Positions 3,446-45,918 are shown, numbered from the stretch's first letter. The stretch is DNA of 64,000 nt from an uncultured Atopobium sp. (GCA_938015835.1 CALLVW010000030.1:10527-74526), one strand, 5' to 3'. Made by a program: numbers and translations. The notes: a model not told the origin generated them from the sequence alone.

Positions 3446-4246
3446 TTAGTGTTCAGACTCTACCAGCTGGATGTAGACAGTAGAGAGTAGGGTAAAAACG
3501 TATGCCTGAATGAAAGCAACAATAGTTTCTACCAAGTAAATGATAATCAACAGCAAGATCCAGAAAATCGAAAATCCTGCCTGGGCGGCTGTTGATGCGG
3601 AGAAGTTCTCAATCGCTGGCATAAAGTACATAGATGCAAGAATTGCAAACGTACCCATAACGATGTGACCTGCATACATGTTGCAGAACAGACGGACAGC
3701 CAGAGTAACCAGACGAAGGAATGTTGAGAAGACCTCAATAACCCAGATAACTGCTGCGATAACAGGATTAACGCCCTTTGGTGCAAGACTCAAGATGTAA
3801 CCAATAACACCCATCTTTTTTGCACCTACATACATAAAGTATCCAAGGGAGCAAAGACCAAGAGCGGCGGTGACACCAATGGTGCCAGTACCTGGGTGTG
3901 CGCCAGGAATAAGGCCAATAATGTTGTTGATCAGAATAAACATAAACATGGTAATCAAGAATGGGAAGTGTGTGCGCCACGTTTCTCCAAGAGAAGCTTT
4001 GCAGACGTCATCTCTGATGTACTCAATCAGATACTCAACACCATTAACAAAGCGTCCCTGAGGAGCAATGCTCTCTGCCTGCTTCTTCTTAAACCTAAAG
4101 CAGACAATCAGAAAAATCACAGCAGCGATTAAGAAATAGAAAATGTAGTTCGTGAAACCAAAGGTGGTGTTACCAACCAATGCGTGTGGCAAAAAACTTT
4201 CGAGCAGCTCGGCCATCTCTGCTGGCAACTGCGCAAGAACATCCAC
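3446..4246 (-). CDS. atpB: ATP synthase Fo subunit a
   Basis: 266-aa polytopic membrane protein at the head of the atp operon. Start is a GTG with an upstream GGGAGG. Confidence 0.85.
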   Translation of the reverse strand: MDVLAQLPAEMAELLESFLPHALVGNTTFGFTNYIFYFLIAAVIFLIVCFRFKKKQAESIAPQGRFVNGVEYLIEYIRDDVCKASLGETWRTHFPFLITMFMFILINNIIGLIPGAHPGTGTIGVTAALGLCSLGYFMYVGAKKMGVIGYILSLAPKGVNPVIAAVIWVIEVFSTFLRLVTLAVRLFCNMYAGHIVMGTFAILASMYFMPAIENFSASTAAQAGFSIFWILLLIIIYLVETIVAFIQAYVFTLLSTVYIQLVESEH

Positions 4247-4758
4247 TCTGTCTCAACCTCCCCATACAATCTGCAACCATTTCAGATTGCCCGTCACTGC
4301 TCAGCATACTTGAAACGCAACGTAAGATGCCAAGAATATGCCACTTGGAGTATATTATCTACCACTCGGCGTGCATATTTGCGACGAACGGCGATACTAG
4401 CACTAAATGAATGCATAGTCACGATTACAAAATCAAATAATTGACTTATGCTCAAACTCTCACATTACTGACACATTTCGTGTTAGCTGCCGTTATTGAT
4501 TCATTCAACTATAACACTTATAAGCTGCTGTTATGTTGCGTTTTTCTCGATAGATATAGTTATGTCCAGATAAAAATAGTTGTATCAATATCCCCTGTTA
4601 TTTGCAAAGTTTTTGATATGTGCCAACTGTTATTTCTTCTCGTAAAGTGATGATTTGAAAAGAAAAATGATCCAGTACACACGTTATGTGAGCGCTGGAT
4701 CAAGTACTAACGTACGTATTCGCAACTATATTAAATTGCGAGAAAGGCGATGAGCTCC

Positions 4759-5403
4759 TTACTTGGTACCGTAAATGCGGTCACCTGCGTCGCCGAGACC
4801 TGGAAGGATGTAGGCATTTGGGCTCAGCTGACGATCAACGGTGCAGGTGTAGAGGCGTACCTCTGGGTCAAAGTCCAGAGTTGCCTTGACGCCCTCAGGG
4901 CAAGAAACAATAGTCAGGCAACGAATGTCCTTGACACCTGCTTCACGCAGGAACTGAATAGCAGCAGTTAGAGAGCCGCCGGTTGCTAGCATTGGGTCAA
5001 CAACCAGGCAGGTACGGTTCTCAATGTCTGCAGGGAACTTGCAGTAATACTGGTGAGGAAGATGGGTCTCTGGATCACGGTACATACCAACATGGCCAAC
5101 GCGAGCAGATGGAACCAGCTCAAGAATGCCGTCAACCATACCAAGGCCAGCACGAAGAATTGGAATAATAGCAACCTTCTTACCAGCAATACGCTTAGCA
5201 GTCATGGTCTCAAGAGGAGTCTCTACCTCGACGTCCTCAAGTGGGAAGTCGCGCATTGCCTCGTAGCTCTCAAGAATTGCAAGCTCGTTGACAAGCTCAC
5301 GGAACTGCTTAGTGGTGGTTGTCTTGTCACGAAGAATGTGAAGCTTGTGCTGAACTAGTGGGTGGTCAACAACCGTAAGTCTGGACTCATCGTAATCTGC
5401 CAT
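4759..5403 (-). CDS. upp: uracil phosphoribosyltransferase
   Basis: 214 aa. Starts MADYDESRLTVVDHPLVQHKL, has a PRPP-binding loop VVDPMLATGGS and ends GLGDAGDRIYGTK. Confidence 0.9.
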   Translation of the reverse strand: MADYDESRLTVVDHPLVQHKLHILRDKTTTTKQFRELVNELAILESYEAMRDFPLEDVEVETPLETMTAKRIAGKKVAIIPILRAGLGMVDGILELVPSARVGHVGMYRDPETHLPHQYYCKFPADIENRTCLVVDPMLATGGSLTAAIQFLREAGVKDIRCLTIVSCPEGVKATLDFDPEVRLYTCTVDRQLSPNAYILPGLGDAGDRIYGTK

Positions 5404-6805: not shown

Positions 6806-7699
6806 CTACTTTGCTAGGTGCGCCACAAGAATGCGCGGCCTGTGCGTCAGATCCTCTTTGACCTCAACGGACTCCCACACGCCCTGCTCCTCGGCAAGGT
6901 GCGCCGCCTTGTCCAGATGCCCCTCGTAGAGCTCAACGCAGAGCATACCACCAGGTAAAAGCATATGTGGAGCAGCCTCGAGCAATCGCCTATAGACGTC
7001 CAGACCGTCCTCTCCTCCGTCAAGCGCCAGCTCAGGCTCAAAACCCTTGACCTCAGCAGGTACCTCCTGCTCAAGCACGCGTGTGGGAATGTAGGGCGGA
7101 TTAGACACCAACACCGAGAAGGACTGTGAAAGCTCTGCGGGCACACCTTCTACCAAGTCACACTCAATGAGCTCCACGCGCTCTTGGAGGTCCAGGGCAT
7201 CTCTGTTGCGAGTTGCCAGCGCAATCGCCTGAGGAGAAAGATCTGTAGCGTAGACGCGCGTCTGTGGGCGCTCAGTAGCAATAGAGAGCGATATGCAGCC
7301 CGTTCCTACGCCAACCTCAAGCACGCGCACTTCTCCGTCAGCGTTTGGAGTTGCCTCGTCAACACCTGATAGCGCAACGTCTACCAGCACCTCTGTCTCT
7401 GGTCGTGGGATAAGCACGCCTGGCTCGCAAGTAAGAACCAGGTGCCTAAAGGGCATCTCGCCCGTCACGTACTGGAGCGGCTCCCCTTCTGCACGGCGCT
7501 TAATTGCCTCGCGCATGCGAGTGCGCTCATCCGCAGAAAGCGGCTTGTCAAAGTTGGTGTAGAGCTGAACGCGAGAAAGGCCTGTCACCGCAGACAAAAG
7601 CCATTCTGCAGAAAGACGTGGATGCTCATCACCCTTCTTTTCCAAGTGCTGAGTAGTCCACGTCAAAATTTTCTGGATTGTCCAAACTTCATCTGTCAT
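6806..7699 (-). CDS. prmC: release factor glutamine N5-methyltransferase
   Basis: SAM-dependent methyltransferase with NPPY motif (VLVSNPPYIP), immediately downstream of prfA. Confidence 0.85.
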   Translation of the reverse strand: MTDEVWTIQKILTWTTQHLEKKGDEHPRLSAEWLLSAVTGLSRVQLYTNFDKPLSADERTRMREAIKRRAEGEPLQYVTGEMPFRHLVLTCEPGVLIPRPETEVLVDVALSGVDEATPNADGEVRVLEVGVGTGCISLSIATERPQTRVYATDLSPQAIALATRNRDALDLQERVELIECDLVEGVPAELSQSFSVLVSNPPYIPTRVLEQEVPAEVKGFEPELALDGGEDGLDVYRRLLEAAPHMLLPGGMLCVELYEGHLDKAAHLAEEQGVWESVEVKEDLTHRPRILVAHLAK

Positions 7700-7711
7700 G
7701 AAGTTTGCACC

Positions 7712-8779
7712 TTAAACAGCCTGAGCGAGTTTCTCGGCACGCTCTGCTGCAGCAAGAGCCTCAATAACGGATGGCAGCGTATCGCCCAGAAGAACGCCAT
7801 TGTAGGTGCCGTTGAAGCCAACGCGGTGGTCGGTTACGCGGTCCTGTGGCTGGTTATAGGTACGAATCTTCTCGGAACGTGCGCCATGGCCAATCTGGGA
7901 AAGACGCTCTGCACCCTGCTCAGCCTGCTGACGCTCCAGCTCCATCTCGTAGAGGCGTGCACGGAGCATCTGCATACAAACCTCGCGGTTCTGAATCTGA
8001 GAACGCTGATCCTGAGACTGAACAACGGTATTTGTTGGCAGGTGAGTAATACGAACTGCGGAATACGTGGTGTTAACGCACTGACCACCAGGGCCAGATG
8101 CGCAGTAGGTATCAATACGCAGGTCTTCCTGGTTGATCTGAATATCAATCTCGTCAGCCTCTGGGAGAACTGCAACGGTTGCGGTTGAGGTCTGAATGCG
8201 GCCCTGAGACTCAGTCTTAGGAACGCGCTGAACACGGTGAACACCGGATTCATACTTCATAACTGAATAGACCTTATCGCCTGTGACCTTGAACTCAATA
8301 GTCTTAAAGCCGCCTGCCTCAGAAGGTGAGCTGGACAGAATCTCTGTCTTCCAACCACGAGCCTCGGCAAAGCGCTCATACATCTTGAAGAGGTCACCTG
8401 CAAAGATTGCCGCCTCATCGCCACCAACACCAGCGCGAATCTCAACGATAGTGTCCTTCTCGTCATTTGGATCGCCTGGGATCAGCATGACCTTGATCTC
8501 ATCCTCAAGCTGAGGGAGCATCTCTTCATTAGCAGCAATATCTTCCTGTAGCATCTCTTTTTCTTCTGGATCAGAAGTGGCGTTGAGAAGCTCTTTTGCA
8601 GCCTCGATGTCATCAAGGGCAGTGATGTACTTGTTGGCGTGAGCAACCAAATCTGCCTGATTAGAGTGCTCTTTTGCCACGCGAGCATACTCTTTTGGAT
8701 CAGAGACAACAGCTGGGTCTGCAAGCTTTTGCTCAAGCTCAGCATAGGCCTCGACGATTTTTTCTAGCTTGTCACGCAT
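7712..8779 (-). CDS. prfA: peptide chain release factor 1
   Basis: GGQ motif (SGPGGQCVNTTYSAVRITHLPT) and RF1-type recognition region. The ATG at 8779 (MRDKLEKI...) has an AGGAG RBS. The track ORF extends to 8869. Confidence 0.9.
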   Translation of the reverse strand: MRDKLEKIVEAYAELEQKLADPAVVSDPKEYARVAKEHSNQADLVAHANKYITALDDIEAAKELLNATSDPEEKEMLQEDIAANEEMLPQLEDEIKVMLIPGDPNDEKDTIVEIRAGVGGDEAAIFAGDLFKMYERFAEARGWKTEILSSSPSEAGGFKTIEFKVTGDKVYSVMKYESGVHRVQRVPKTESQGRIQTSTATVAVLPEADEIDIQINQEDLRIDTYCASGPGGQCVNTTYSAVRITHLPTNTVVQSQDQRSQIQNREVCMQMLRARLYEMELERQQAEQGAERLSQIGHGARSEKIRTYNQPQDRVTDHRVGFNGTYNGVLLGDTLPSVIEALAAAERAEKLAQAV

Positions 8780-42707: not shown

Positions 42708-44633
42708 ATGCCAGGTAGAATGCTCAGTGGGCGTTACCAGGTTCAAGACAAAATTGGTACCGGTGGAATGGCCACCGTTTACCGCGGACAGGACCAGGTT
42801 CTTGGTCGTACTGTTGCCATCAAGATGATGCTGCCGCAGTACGCAAACGATCCTTCCTTTGCTGCCCGCTTCAAGCAGGAGGCACAAGCCGCAGCGGCGC
42901 TCTCCAGTCCTTATATTGTCTCGATATACGACTGGGGTAAGGACGGCGAGTCCTACTACATTGTCATGGAGTATCTGCGCGGTACAGACCTTAAGAGTGG
43001 CATCCGCAAACATGGAGCCCTTGATTCCCGTAAGGTCGCTCAGATTGGCTCTCAGATTGCTCAGGCACTCTCTGTAGCACATCGTCACGACATCATTCAC
43101 CGTGACATCAAACCACAGAACATCATGGTCCAGCCAGATGGCAACATCAAGGTCATGGACTTTGGCATTGCTCGTGCAAAGAACAGCAGTCTAACCACCG
43201 ATAACTCTGTTCTTGGCACCGCTCATTACGTTTCTCCAGAGCAGAGTACGGGCAAGCCTTTGGGACCAACCACCGATATCTATTCCCTAGGCATTGTCAT
43301 GTACGAGGCTGCAACTGGCCGCGTTCCCTTTGTTGGTGACGACGCTATCAGCGTTGCTATGAAGCAGGTCAACGAGGCTCCTCAGCCACCATCGCTGATC
43401 AACCCCAACGTTGACCCCGCACTCGAGGCAATCATTCTTCGCTGTATGGAGAAAAACCCAGCTGACCGCTATCAGAGTGCTGACGAGCTTGCTCGTGCGC
43501 TGCGCGATTTTATTGCTGGCCGCGCTACTATTCCAAGCAACACCACCGTGAGCCCCCGCATTGTGACACCACCTCAGCCAACTTCCAGGTTGGATCGTCG
43601 CGGCATTGACGGCTCCAACACCTACATCACGCGCGGTGGCGACACTGGTCGCTTGAACCGCGTCCATTCTCGCGAAGAGGCTGATGAGCTTGACAGGCGC
43701 GAGAATAAACGTCACAAGCGCAACGTTATTCTCGGCGTTTTAGGCGCTTTGGTTGTCCTGGCTCTTGCCGGCTTTGCTATTGCACAGATGCTCGGCAACT
43801 CCGCCCAGCAGTATCTGGTTCCACAGTTTGTTGGTCAGACAAAAGACCAGGCTACTCAGGCACTAAATGCTTCTGATAGCCACTTTAAGCTGGGAACTGT
43901 TACAGAAAGCTACAGTGATTCTGCTCCTGAAGGCCAGGTCATTGATCAGACACCAAGCGCTAACAAACAGGCTCCTGAAGGAACCGCGGTTAACCTTGTC
44001 ATTTCTAAGGGCGCTAAACCTGCTGCTGCAGTTAAGGTGCCTGATCTTACCAACAAGAGTCCATCAGAGGCTGAGTCTGCTCTTGCTGCTGTTGGCCTCA
44101 AAGCAAGAAATGGTGACTCGGTTGAGTCGGATGACGTAACCGTTGGTTATGTTGCAACACAGGAACCAGCCGCAGGTAGCGATGCTAAAGCTGGCGACAC
44201 CATCACCTATCACCTGTCTACTGGCAAGGGTAAGGCAGATGTTCCAGACGTCACCGAGATGACTGCCGAGCGTGCGTCCGATGTTTTGAAAGATGCAGGC
44301 TTCAAGGTAGATACTCAGAAACAGCCTTCGTCGAGCGTTCCTGAGGGCCGTGTCATCTCCCAGTCTCCAGCTAACGGCAAGGCAGATAAGGGTTCCACGG
44401 TAACCATCGTTGTTTCTTCCGGTGCTCAGAGTGGCTCTGTTCCAAACGTTGTTGGCAAGGACTTTGAAACCGCTCAGTCCACGCTGGAAAACGCGGGCTT
44501 CCAGGTCAACACGGTTTGGGTCTACGATGACAACGTTGCAACCGGAAACGTAGTTGGCCAAACACCTTCAAGTGCTGCAGCTGGCGCTACTATCACCATC
44601 CGCGTCTCCAGTGGACCTCGTCCATCAGCGTAA
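42708..44633 (+). CDS. pknB: Ser/Thr protein kinase PknB-type with extracellular PASTA repeats
   Basis: Kinase motifs GTGGMATVY, HRDIKPQN, DFGIA, SPEQ. A TM helix at about residues 338-360 and four PASTA-like repeats at the C-terminus. Confidence 0.9.
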   Translation: MPGRMLSGRYQVQDKIGTGGMATVYRGQDQVLGRTVAIKMMLPQYANDPSFAARFKQEAQAAAALSSPYIVSIYDWGKDGESYYIVMEYLRGTDLKSGIRKHGALDSRKVAQIGSQIAQALSVAHRHDIIHRDIKPQNIMVQPDGNIKVMDFGIARAKNSSLTTDNSVLGTAHYVSPEQSTGKPLGPTTDIYSLGIVMYEAATGRVPFVGDDAISVAMKQVNEAPQPPSLINPNVDPALEAIILRCMEKNPADRYQSADELARALRDFIAGRATIPSNTTVSPRIVTPPQPTSRLDRRGIDGSNTYITRGGDTGRLNRVHSREEADELDRRENKRHKRNVILGVLGALVVLALAGFAIAQMLGNSAQQYLVPQFVGQTKDQATQALNASDSHFKLGTVTESYSDSAPEGQVIDQTPSANKQAPEGTAVNLVISKGAKPAAAVKVPDLTNKSPSEAESALAAVGLKARNGDSVESDDVTVGYVATQEPAAGSDAKAGDTITYHLSTGKGKADVPDVTEMTAERASDVLKDAGFKVDTQKQPSSSVPEGRVISQSPANGKADKGSTVTIVVSSGAQSGSVPNVVGKDFETAQSTLENAGFQVNTVWVYDDNVATGNVVGQTPSSAAAGATITIRVSSGPRPSA

Positions 44634-44691
44634 TCGCTGCGGCGTGCAGTGTGCGGCTCCAAGCGCACAGTGAGCACAACTAGTACGTTCA

Positions 44692-44726
44692 AGCCCTGCA
44701 ACCGTGTTTGGTTGCAGGGCTTTTTG
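44692..44726 (+). terminator. intrinsic terminator after pknB
   Basis: GCCCTGCAACC-loop-GGTTGCAGGGC hairpin followed by TTTTTG. Confidence 0.75.
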
Positions 44727-44742
44727 CTGTAGGAAAAATGGT

Positions 44743-44875
44743 TGAACACACCTATGACAGATAATCTGTCAAAAAGACGTATACATTACACTGAAAATAC
44801 CTCAAACGTGCAGATTATCTTCATTAGGTGTGTAATATGCCCGCAATTGTGCAGAATATCTGTCATAGGTGTGTT
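44743..44875. repeat. 133-bp element bounded by 20-bp perfect inverted repeats (GAACACACCTATGACAGATA ... TATCTGTCATAGGTGTGTTC) with a degenerate internal third copy
   Basis: Seen directly in the sequence. An internal near-palindrome GACAGATAATCTGTC and a partial copy CATTAGGTGTGT at 44821-44832. Located between convergent pknB and tRNA-Arg. Confidence 0.6.
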
Positions 44876-45093
44876 CTCTAGAAGCGGAATTTACCTATAG
44901 TTAGATTTTTTATATTTCTCTATTCATTTTCCAGCATATTAGATGAAGTTTATGCATAGAGATGCATATCGGGTAGTGAGGCCGTCTGGCGTCCAGCTTT
45001 CTTGGTCAGAAGTACGGCGATTCTTCAGCGAGACCTGCCAAAACCGCACTATTTTACATGCCGAGCTCGAGGCTTGACGCTAACTCGCCGCAA

Positions 45094-45127
45094 CAAAGAA
45101 AAACCGGCAGCACGAAGCTGCCGGTTT
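45094..45127 (-). terminator. intrinsic terminator after tRNA-Arg(CCT)
   Basis: AAACCGGCAGC-ACGAA-GCTGCCGGTTT hairpin with a minus-strand T-run (TTTTTCTTT). Confidence 0.7.
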
Positions 45128-45135
45128 AAAATCAA

Positions 45136-45211
45136 TGGTGCCCCCGGGCCGATTCGAACGGCCGACACCCGCTTTAGGAGAGCGGTGCTCTATCCCCTGA
45201 GCTACGAAGGC
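45136..45211 (-). tRNA. tRNA-Arg (anticodon CCU)
   Basis: Reverse complement GCCUUCG...GCUCAGGGGAUAGAGC...anticodon loop CUCCUAA...GGTTCGAAT...CGGGGGCACCA. Confidence 0.85.
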
Positions 45212-45291
45212 ATGTGGGATATTCTACTCACGTAGGCTCGCGTACGCAAATATCGCCAACGCTTGCGGCGCCGGCAGCAGCGCGAGAGCTG

Positions 45292-45918
45292 CTACTTGCG
45301 ACGAGCCTTGCGCTCGGCTCTCTTTCTGTCGTACTCAGCCTGACGCTCGAGGTAGAAATCGTTGAGCTTCTTGTCGGTCATGCCAGCAACCTTAGCCTCG
45401 ATCTTCTTGCGAAGAGGACGCATCTTAAAGAAGCTGTAGACAACCGAGCCAAAGATGCAGAAGTAAGCAAAGACCAGCATAATGGCAGAAATCATACCAA
45501 CGCCGGTGTTCAGGTCCCTGGATTCAGGAACCATATACGAAAGCACCAGTGTAATGATGGTTGCAACAAAGCCAAGACCCAGGAAGACCCACCAAACGCG
45601 CTCGGCACGATGATAATCTGGATCCGCGCGTAGCATAGCCTCAAATCCGCGGCTACGAATATCCTCGCGCTCACGCTGGCGAGCACGTGCAGCGCGCTTC
45701 TCCTCTTTGCTCTTTGGAGCACTGGAACCAGAGCCGGAGCCACTTACGCGTACAGACGCAGCTGCCTCTCGTACTGGTTTAGCAGTAGCAGCAGATTTGC
45801 GACCAAAAGCGGAATACGAAGGACGCTCAGTCTCCTCAGAGGTTTCTTTCTTTGAAAGGCTTACGGTAGCCTCACGCGCTTCTTTGGTTGCGCCTGTAAT
45901 GGTGTCACGCAGTGACAT
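45292..45918 (-). CDS. hypothetical membrane protein (basic/Ser-rich N-terminus, 2 TM helices, Lys/Arg-rich C-terminus)
   Basis: 208 aa, AAGGAG RBS. Overlaps the purC stop by 14 nt, so it is co-transcribed. Confidence 0.5.
   Translation of the reverse strand: MSLRDTITGATKEAREATVSLSKKETSEETERPSYSAFGRKSAATAKPVREAAASVRVSGSGSGSSAPKSKEEKRAARARQREREDIRSRGFEAMLRADPDYHRAERVWWVFLGLGFVATIITLVLSYMVPESRDLNTGVGMISAIMLVFAYFCIFGSVVYSFFKMRPLRKKIEAKVAGMTDKKLNDFYLERQAEYDRKRAERKARRK

Follow-up and report, generated by a model that had tools for sequence, protein, structure and literature searches.

What is a perfect inverted repeat doing between two transcription terminators, in a place where no gene adjoins it? 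The question is raised by one intergenic region of the window, by which is meant the whole stretch of DNA analysed here, 64,000 nucleotides in length. An earlier note on this stretch had described a 133-bp element bounded by 20-bp inverted repeats, with a degenerate third copy between them and a near-palindrome continuing the left repeat, and had favoured a miniature inverted-repeat transposable element or a small structured RNA over a multi-site operator. All these pieces are present. The arms are perfect 20-mers, GAACACACCTATGACAGATA at 44744-44763 and its exact reverse complement at 44857-44876; the coordinates given in the note were all one base too low and have to be shifted by +1. The arms can be extended to 25 nt (44744-44768 and 44852-44876, with 24/25 positions complementary), leaving a gap of 83 nt between them. 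The near-palindrome is GACAGATAATCTGTC, at 44756-44770. The third copy, at 44811-44833, proves larger than had been noted: it spans 23 nt, with 83% complementarity to the left arm; its orientation is that of the right arm, and both lie within a 34-nt direct repeat, at a spacing of 41 nt. With up to 3 mismatches allowed, the 18-mer core of the arms has 2 matches where 0.02 are expected from the shuffled 64-kb window, which excludes chance as the origin of the arms.

The surroundings are also as had been described. The pknB gene (42708-44633, plus strand) is followed by a terminator at 44691-44722, the tRNA-Arg(CCT) gene (45136-45211, minus strand) by one at 45127-45101, and the repeat sits between these two terminators with no gene adjacent to it. 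The repeat region is AT-rich, with 35-39% G+C compared to ~55% in the flanks. At the far side of the tRNA gene, at about 45221-45249 on the minus strand, there is a probable tRNA-Arg(CCT) promoter, TTGCGT-17-TAGAAT, which stops 9 nt short of the mature 5' end and was missed by a stringent consensus scan. From this promoter, the host appears to use promoters of the sigma-70 type.

The limits of the element change once other copies are aligned with it. In the alignments, the 133-bp unit makes up just the left third of a non-coding module of about 350 bp, 44744-45092, made of three copies of one motif, called boxes hereafter, followed by an AT-rich segment and a tail. The parts of the module and its immediate context are as follows.

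44691-44722, plus strand: pknB intrinsic terminator (context, outside the module)
44744-44769, plus strand: box 1, the left arm, GAACACACCTATGACAGATAATCTGT, which holds the dyad GACAGATAATCTGTC (44756-44770)
44779-44786, no strand assigned: GTATACAT block, preceded by an AAAA tract; C.TATACAT is invariant in six paralog classes
44810-44833, minus strand: box 2, the degenerate third copy of the note, oriented as box 3
44851-44876, minus strand: box 3, the right arm, 41 nt from box 2
44877-44975, plus strand: conserved AT-rich segment, 35-39% G+C
44901-44930, plus strand: candidate promoter TTAGAT-18 nt-CATTTT, which the consensus scan does not support
44976-45092, plus strand: variable tail, common to palindrome-flanked, L014-type and L044-type copies
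45101-45127, minus strand: tRNA-Arg(CCT) terminator (context), which abuts the right end of the module

The 24-bp consensus of the box is ACACACCTA-WGWCR-GATAWTCTGC, in which a dyad, CAGATWATCTG, is joined to an asymmetric extension, ACACACCTA. Both arms and the third copy fit a single position weight matrix, made from 92 distinct boxes and used with a reporting threshold of 14 bits, and this matrix finds just three sites in the 64-kb window, each scoring 41-44 bits. In most paralog classes homology begins abruptly at the outer edge of box 1, and the distance between box 1 and the GTATACAT block is fixed in all six. The AT-rich segment contains the invariant blocks TA.TTA.A, T.ATA, ATTCAT..T, G.ATAT, TTAT.CAT (which includes a 10-bp near-palindrome, TTATGCATAG, at 44950-44959) and TG.AT; within the candidate promoter, TTA.A. 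and CAT..T are invariant in all classes. In the most diverged classes the shared homology stops near 44975. A conserved fold or reading frame was looked for in the tail, 44976-45092, and neither was found. In the consensus of the palindrome-flanked copies described below, the last ~25 nt of the core (AACACGCTGCAGAATCATAATCAC) resemble a degenerate fourth box in direct orientation, at ~15/24 positions; the equivalent end in the window, at about 45069-45092, is more decayed.

The module belongs to a dispersed, multi-copy family, as a repeat of the kind proposed in the earlier note would. The search for further copies that had been suggested there was carried out in one genome per species with the query ACACAYCTAWNNNNGATAWTCTG, and at least 119 loci were matched, all but three of them in Atopobium/Lancefieldella. 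The three others, in Woesearchaeota, Bacteroidales and Halobacterium, were taken as chance matches. A single genome has at least 6-7 loci, and the complete L. parvula chromosome CP097092.1 has at least five copies, spread over at least four 8-kb blocks. Many of the family matches sit at contig ends. No box was matched in viral contigs, no homolog of the module in phage and plasmid collections, and literature searches turned up no description of this element. When the window was compared by BLAST with the family loci, homology started sharply at 44745 and in most copies reached 45055-45092, with 80-88% identity; in more diverged copies it reached only about 44927-44982.

The arrangement of the boxes is constant. 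Every complete cluster (63/63) has the geometry → 64 ← 41 ←, and an alignment of 28 copies, drawn from six paralog classes, contains no indel in 245 nt. Among seven representatives of the six classes, the boxes, the GTATACAT block and the AT-rich blocks are invariant while the spacers diverge. Copies lacking the palindromes discussed below are fixed at several further loci of the same genomes: one adjoins a Dxs-like gene (its identity read from the N-terminal sequence), one lies between the genes for enolase and a PPi-phosphofructokinase-like protein, and others adjoin an ABC-F ATPase gene and an aldolase gene. Atopobiaceae DNA yielded no isolated box, and none stood upstream of a gene in the window or in ~750 kb of related loci.

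Boxes also occur in two other architectures. In one, 4-5 direct boxes and 3 inverted ones form an array that repeats every 42 bp and varies in copy number between genomes (L022 6872-7145; L059 4598-4829; L048 5509-5782; L077 125-355). One 42-bp unit has been gained or lost between genomes (209 vs 251 nt), and the L048 array has galT on one side and a sugar ABC-transporter permease gene on the other. The other architecture consists of two direct boxes 41-42 bp apart. In a separate observation, a GC-rich minisatellite of variable length (GCGACGATGCGCGACGAGC…) directly follows a YebC-family gene (L034 ~4150-4470, minus strand; L036 ~720-990; L067; L113), and 3' of it come a terminator, a pair of direct boxes spaced by 41-42 nt and a cluster of palindromic ATGAATATTCAT.

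At the pknB locus itself, the element is fixed. Ten metagenome contigs with an identical PknB all carry it (10/10) in the same place and with the same three-copy geometry, and six species-representative genomes, of Atopobium sp. or Lancefieldella parvula, have the pknB…tRNA-Arg locus at 93-98% identity, which places the window in the Lancefieldella (Atopobium) parvula group. Empty sites were sought in the window, with which the related loci overlapped in the pknB region only. From the pknB terminator to the left arm, the spacer measures 113, 198 or 265 nt. The allele of the window (44634-44743) is without 85-150 nt found between pknB and box 1 in other strains, and it carries an extra palindromic insert of ~21 nt, GTGCGGCTCCAAGCGCAC, at about 44653-44675, before the pknB terminator. 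Pairwise nucleotide diversity (pi) among the strains with identical PknB is 0.015 in pknB DNA, 0.04-0.07 in the boxes, 0.11-0.14 in the spacers and the AT-rich part, and 0.22 in the tail, 44976-45092, which is hypervariable between strains. In strain L008 the tail matches the consensus of copies elsewhere in the genome and not the tail of the window, which would point to exchange with paralogous copies.

These alignments bear directly on the proposal of a miniature inverted-repeat transposable element consisting of the 133-bp unit. Since the homology of every paralog class extends past the right arm by another 100-220 nt, 44876 was never an element boundary; the left arm coincides with the edge of homology (44745) and the right arm does not. 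The unit does have the perfect inverted-repeat ends (20-25 bp), the small size, the non-coding character and the many copies of such an element, but the target-site duplication that the note had advised looking for is absent on either side of 44744 and 44876, where the flanks read …ATGGTTG and CTCTAGA…, and none was found at the other classes. Moreover, the sole mobility demonstrated in the family uses IS3-type palindromes that are absent from the window, and among ~120 loci there is no autonomous, gene-bearing partner that ends in boxes. This reading is highly improbable.

Perfect inverted repeats around a short AT-rich segment are also reminiscent of gut invertons, and a recombinase could be imagined to flip the 83-bp segment between the arms. 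However, among ~80 modules from dozens of genomes, none is flipped relative to the AT-rich side, with the proviso that assemblies show the majority orientation only, and no recombinase gene is adjacent. In favour of such a switch, a whole composite is found in opposite orientations at one host site in two genomes (L086 vs L091, see below). An invertible switch at this locus is scarcely credible.

The second proposal of the earlier note was a small RNA. If the region were transcribed, the 25-bp stem formed by box 1 and box 3 might be functional, as an RNase III target, a stabiliser or an sRNA, and box 2, given its 83% complementarity to box 1, would be an alternative pairing partner. Folding the 133 nt, as had been suggested, indeed gives strong structures, of -50.5 kcal/mol on the plus strand (z = -7.3) and -58.7 kcal/mol on the minus strand (z = -8.7), the strength of which comes from the inverted repeat itself. 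The sRNA reading, though, finds no Rfam family and, outside the arms, no conserved structure. A cmscan of 44300-45500 at E <=10 returned the tRNA and noise and nothing else, and Rfam at the gathering threshold returned nothing at the modules of seven related loci. (An FMN riboswitch, RF00050, scoring 78.8 bits, lies at L041 638-804 on the minus strand and is unrelated to the module.) RNAalifold, run on 60 full-length and 28 cross-class copies on both strands, predicted the arm helix alone and left the tail unstructured; its covariation term was unfavourable, and no other conserved helix appeared over 245-369 nt on either strand.

Of the 24 pairs of the arm helix, 16 are invariant, 3 have changed on both sides, as a functional stem would predict, and 5 are broken in some copies, pair 20/112 in as many as 13/27. 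Pairing is retained in 94.4% of cells, compared to 92.7% in shuffles. Within the box spacers, which match in just 27/64 copies, positions have changed together in both arms in 12 cells, where shuffling predicts 5.5 and 0/500 shuffles reach the observed value, and identity within a copy is 4.22 vs 3.73; a pressure or a mutational bias towards arm complementarity is thus possible. However, the shuffle control is inflated by the relatedness of the copies, and the template-switch 'correction' of quasi-palindromes, an established mechanism, could mimic the signal. Taken as a whole, the covariation of the arms appears weak and confounded by lineage. In addition, arrays of boxes in the same orientation with a 42-bp period have no hairpin logic, and neither promoter nor terminator brackets the 133 nt. 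A functional RNA stem is, in our opinion, decidedly unlikely. Coding sequences were rejected as well. The ORFs at 44742-44900 (52 aa) and 44943-45077 (44 aa) and those of the minus strand do not keep their frame: paralogs differ by 1-nt indels, and stop codons interrupt the frame in two classes, L041 and L026. The 44-aa product is not on record in databases.

Although the 133-bp unit is not a mobile element by its boundaries, part of the family has moved. Most paralogs are bracketed on both sides by a 46-bp perfect palindrome, TGAACTGCCTCCCATTTCTT-(6-7 nt)-AAGAAATGGGAGGCAGTTCA, and 106 palindromes out of 112 abut a module core. The complete composite measures ~460 bp. Its copies are highly alike, which suggests a recent burst, and they are too recent and too uniform to inform on selection. 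A filled site in L065 (2697-3180) can be compared with the empty site in L025 and L023: the insertion is accompanied by a 3-bp duplication, ATT, the filled site reading GGATT[…]ATTGTC and the empty one GGATTGTC. Identical flanking triplets are found at 15/36 distinct sites, where ~0.6 would be expected. At least 20 of these 36 sites are in the loop of a predicted hairpin, and the hairpins are mostly recognisable terminators with an A-tract, a stem and a T-tract.

Two particular cases deserve description. In two genomes the 460-bp composite occupies the same host site but faces opposite ways (L086 ~3505-3967 vs L091 ~37-496), which could reflect either independent insertion or inversion between the flanking palindromes; the site is a terminator-like hairpin, CGCCTCTAGAAA…TTTCTAGGAGCG. 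In L021 (~7400-7790) and L073 (~4720-5140) the left palindrome alone is present, and an 18-bp sequence, AATCCCCCGCACAGAAAT, is duplicated on either side of the palindrome plus core, inside a terminator hairpin.

The palindrome can be traced to an insertion sequence. Its 19-mer is the left end of a 1453-bp IS in viral (prophage) contigs, at 597-2049 in L132 (viral contig IMGVR_UViG_2841219092_000001) and also in L130, L133-L135, L139 and L141. This IS has TG…CA ends, and its transposase domains (HTH_28, HTH_21, rve, rve_2), together with an A6G slippery site, assign it to the IS3 family. The IS inserts behind the A-tract and left stem of intrinsic terminators and produces a 3-bp target duplication, which in L132 is TAC. 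At the left end of the IS, CCTCCCATTTCT/AGAAATGGGAGG fold over the element's own ribosome-binding site. The 46-bp palindrome corresponds to nt 1-40 of the L132 IS followed by AGTTCA from its right end, and solitary palindromes of this kind occupy terminator loops in prophage contigs (L136 6542-6587, L138 ~788-833 and L140 ~6892-6937), with 3-bp duplications of TTT, TAA and GAT, respectively. No autonomous copy of the IS was seen in Lancefieldella contigs. The dispersed copies are best read as composites, in which two mini-elements surround a captured module.

In the 64-kb window, the end of the palindrome, GAACTGCCTCCCATTTCTT, has no match with up to 3 mismatches, and the window copy reads as one of the older, fixed chromosomal copies, which are without flanking palindromes. 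The idea of mobility put forward in the earlier note is thus right for part of the family, as the filled and empty sites at L065 demonstrate, and wrong as to boundaries and mechanism, the mobile termini being derived from an IS3-family element and absent from the window.

What, then, are the boxes themselves? The possibility that the note had ranked lowest, a multi-site operator, is the one that fits the anatomy best: one box is used three times, in an indel-free geometry and with a phasing of 41-42 bp that recurs. We put at roughly 0.45 the probability that the boxes are a phased cluster of protein-binding sites on duplex DNA, which would most likely form a cis-regulatory cassette. This reading draws on the conservation of the boxes against drifting spacers, on their spacing, on the 41-42-bp period, on the dyad and on the AT-rich neighbour. 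Indeed, boxes with the dyad CAGATWATCTG are conserved across the six classes while the spacers vary, the 64/41 spacing is found in all 63 complete clusters, and the period of 41-42 bp is seen again in the two other architectures. The perfect 20-bp complementarity in this strain arises because boxes 1 and 3 carry one motif, facing opposite ways, and is not itself a conserved requirement.

In outline, a sequence-specific protein would bind the boxes on double-stranded DNA, at sites held in helical register (41 bp, or about four turns, from box 2 to box 3) and adjoining an AT-rich, bendable segment. The cassette might control a weak promoter, approximately TTAGAT-18-CATTTT, directed rightward from ~44937 and giving a short, poorly conserved transcript. 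The promoter is a less secure part of the proposal than the binding of a protein. It fits the end of homology near 44975 and the invariance of TTAnAT-18-CATnnT (44901-44930), but a consensus promoter scan of 44400-45400 found none, and in a cross-class scan no strong -35/-10 pair was conserved in all classes, the candidate hexamers being poor. A sister copy would have gained two flanking 46-bp miniature derivatives of the IS3-family insertion sequence and would then have spread, as the 460-bp composite, into the loops of intrinsic terminators; this spread accounts for the family being multi-copy and breaking assemblies.

Several observations speak against a regulatory role. The copies of the module mostly lie after the 3' ends of genes or between convergent genes, so that there is usually nothing obvious to regulate; a gene lies downstream of the module in one class only (the PPi-phosphofructokinase-like gene). 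No linked regulator gene consistently adjoins the module across loci. Finally, the sharp left edge of homology, at the outer end of box 1, resembles the limit of a regulatory region less than it does the end of a mobile or recombining unit.

That edge invites a different explanation, in which the boxes would be sites for a transposase or a recombinase, and the modules and arrays end-only relics, left at former insertion sites, of an element that has died out or has so far escaped notice. In the L022-type arrays, boxes pointing outward stand at both ends, in groups of 4-5 and of 3, and the boxes are asymmetric, 24 bp long and never single, all of which such relics would show, along with the intergenic placement and the lineage-restricted distribution of the family. 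Yet no transposase-bearing element with boxes was found in ~120 loci, nor in the viral, plasmid and phage collections, and target duplications are absent around the 133-bp unit, the module and the arrays alike. No inverted box closes the right end of the module, and the ends of the box are ACAC…GTGT instead of the TG…CA of DDE elements. In fixed copies at orthologous loci the boxes have stayed perfect, and their spacing free of indels, as the spacers drift, which is unexpected for dead relics. We consider an origin as transposon ends, the main rival reading, rather unlikely. A somewhat better chance, though still a doubtful one, can be given to another view, in which the module would be an undescribed, genus-specific cis-element, a self-contained protein-binding platform of regulatory or chromosome-architectural function kept by the host at several fixed loci, and of which a pair of IS3-derived mini-elements has carried copies to terminators.

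Whatever the role of the boxes, the feature is, on the comparisons made here, a lineage-specific intergenic repeat with a multi-site motif, to which is added an IS3-derived composite directed to the loops of terminators. A common commensal of the mouth and gut, Lancefieldella parvula has, to our knowledge, almost no molecular genetics. It now gains an IS3-family element with 46-bp derivatives that insert in the loops of intrinsic terminators. The recent multiplication of the 460-bp composite would explain the contig breaks and the extreme polymorphism beside pknB. The constrained 24-bp motif, with its fixed three-site geometry, is directly usable as bait for the putative binding protein. Should the boxes be regulatory, the composite provides a natural experiment in which binding sites are spread by transposition; a phased binding cassette of the kind proposed would then be a ready-made, multi-site unit that a transposon distributes, rewiring many operon ends at once. 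If they are inert relics, this is an ordinary lineage-specific repeat family.

How does the module compare with known systems? DnaA boxes, Fur/DtxR/CRP-type boxes, dif, parS, Ter and attC sites, retron ncRNA, sigma-54 promoters with an upstream activating sequence and type I toxin-antitoxin loci were all dismissed by eye, having no match in sequence or context. Multi-site operators resemble it in the threefold use of a dyad motif at fixed spacing, in same-orientation neighbours 41-42 bp (about four turns) apart, in the AT-rich segment alongside, and in the point at which the classes cease to be homologous, close to the expected start of a transcript. The module departs from them in having no convincing promoter and usually no downstream gene, in the duplication of the cassette as a whole, and in that boxes never occur singly before ordinary genes. 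The ends of Tn7 (TnsB sites), Mu (att), IS21 and Tn5053 carry multiple transposase-binding sites, and the likeness to these is in the use of several asymmetric sites of ~22-24 bp, which in the L022-type arrays face outward in unequal numbers on the two sides. Here, however, no transposase, target duplication or TG…CA terminus was found with the boxes, and the main module has a boundary on one side only.

Correia/NEMIS, ERIC, RUP and BOX are dispersed intergenic repeats of bacteria that carry regulatory signals. Like them, the present family is lineage-specific, non-coding, multi-copy, 100-500 bp in size, intergenic near terminators and assembly-breaking. Those repeats have their own terminal inverted repeats, whereas here the repeat is internal, the three boxes being grouped at one end, and the family includes several copies fixed at orthologous loci, with motifs that are constrained. 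The closest parallel to the palindrome-flanked paralogs is provided by loop-targeting IS3-family elements, with which they share TG…CA ends, 3-bp duplications and insertion into hairpin loops. IS1397 and ISKpn1, members of this family, insert into the loops of REP/BIME palindromes; the targets here are intrinsic terminators and not REP elements, and the window copy is without such flanks. The ends of the paralogs are identical to the left end of the IS, and two mini-elements bracket a passenger, as in a composite transposon. The composites differ from such systems in that each flank is merely 46 bp, the left inverted repeat plus the right tip, and in that the passenger is not a gene but a non-coding module of boxes.
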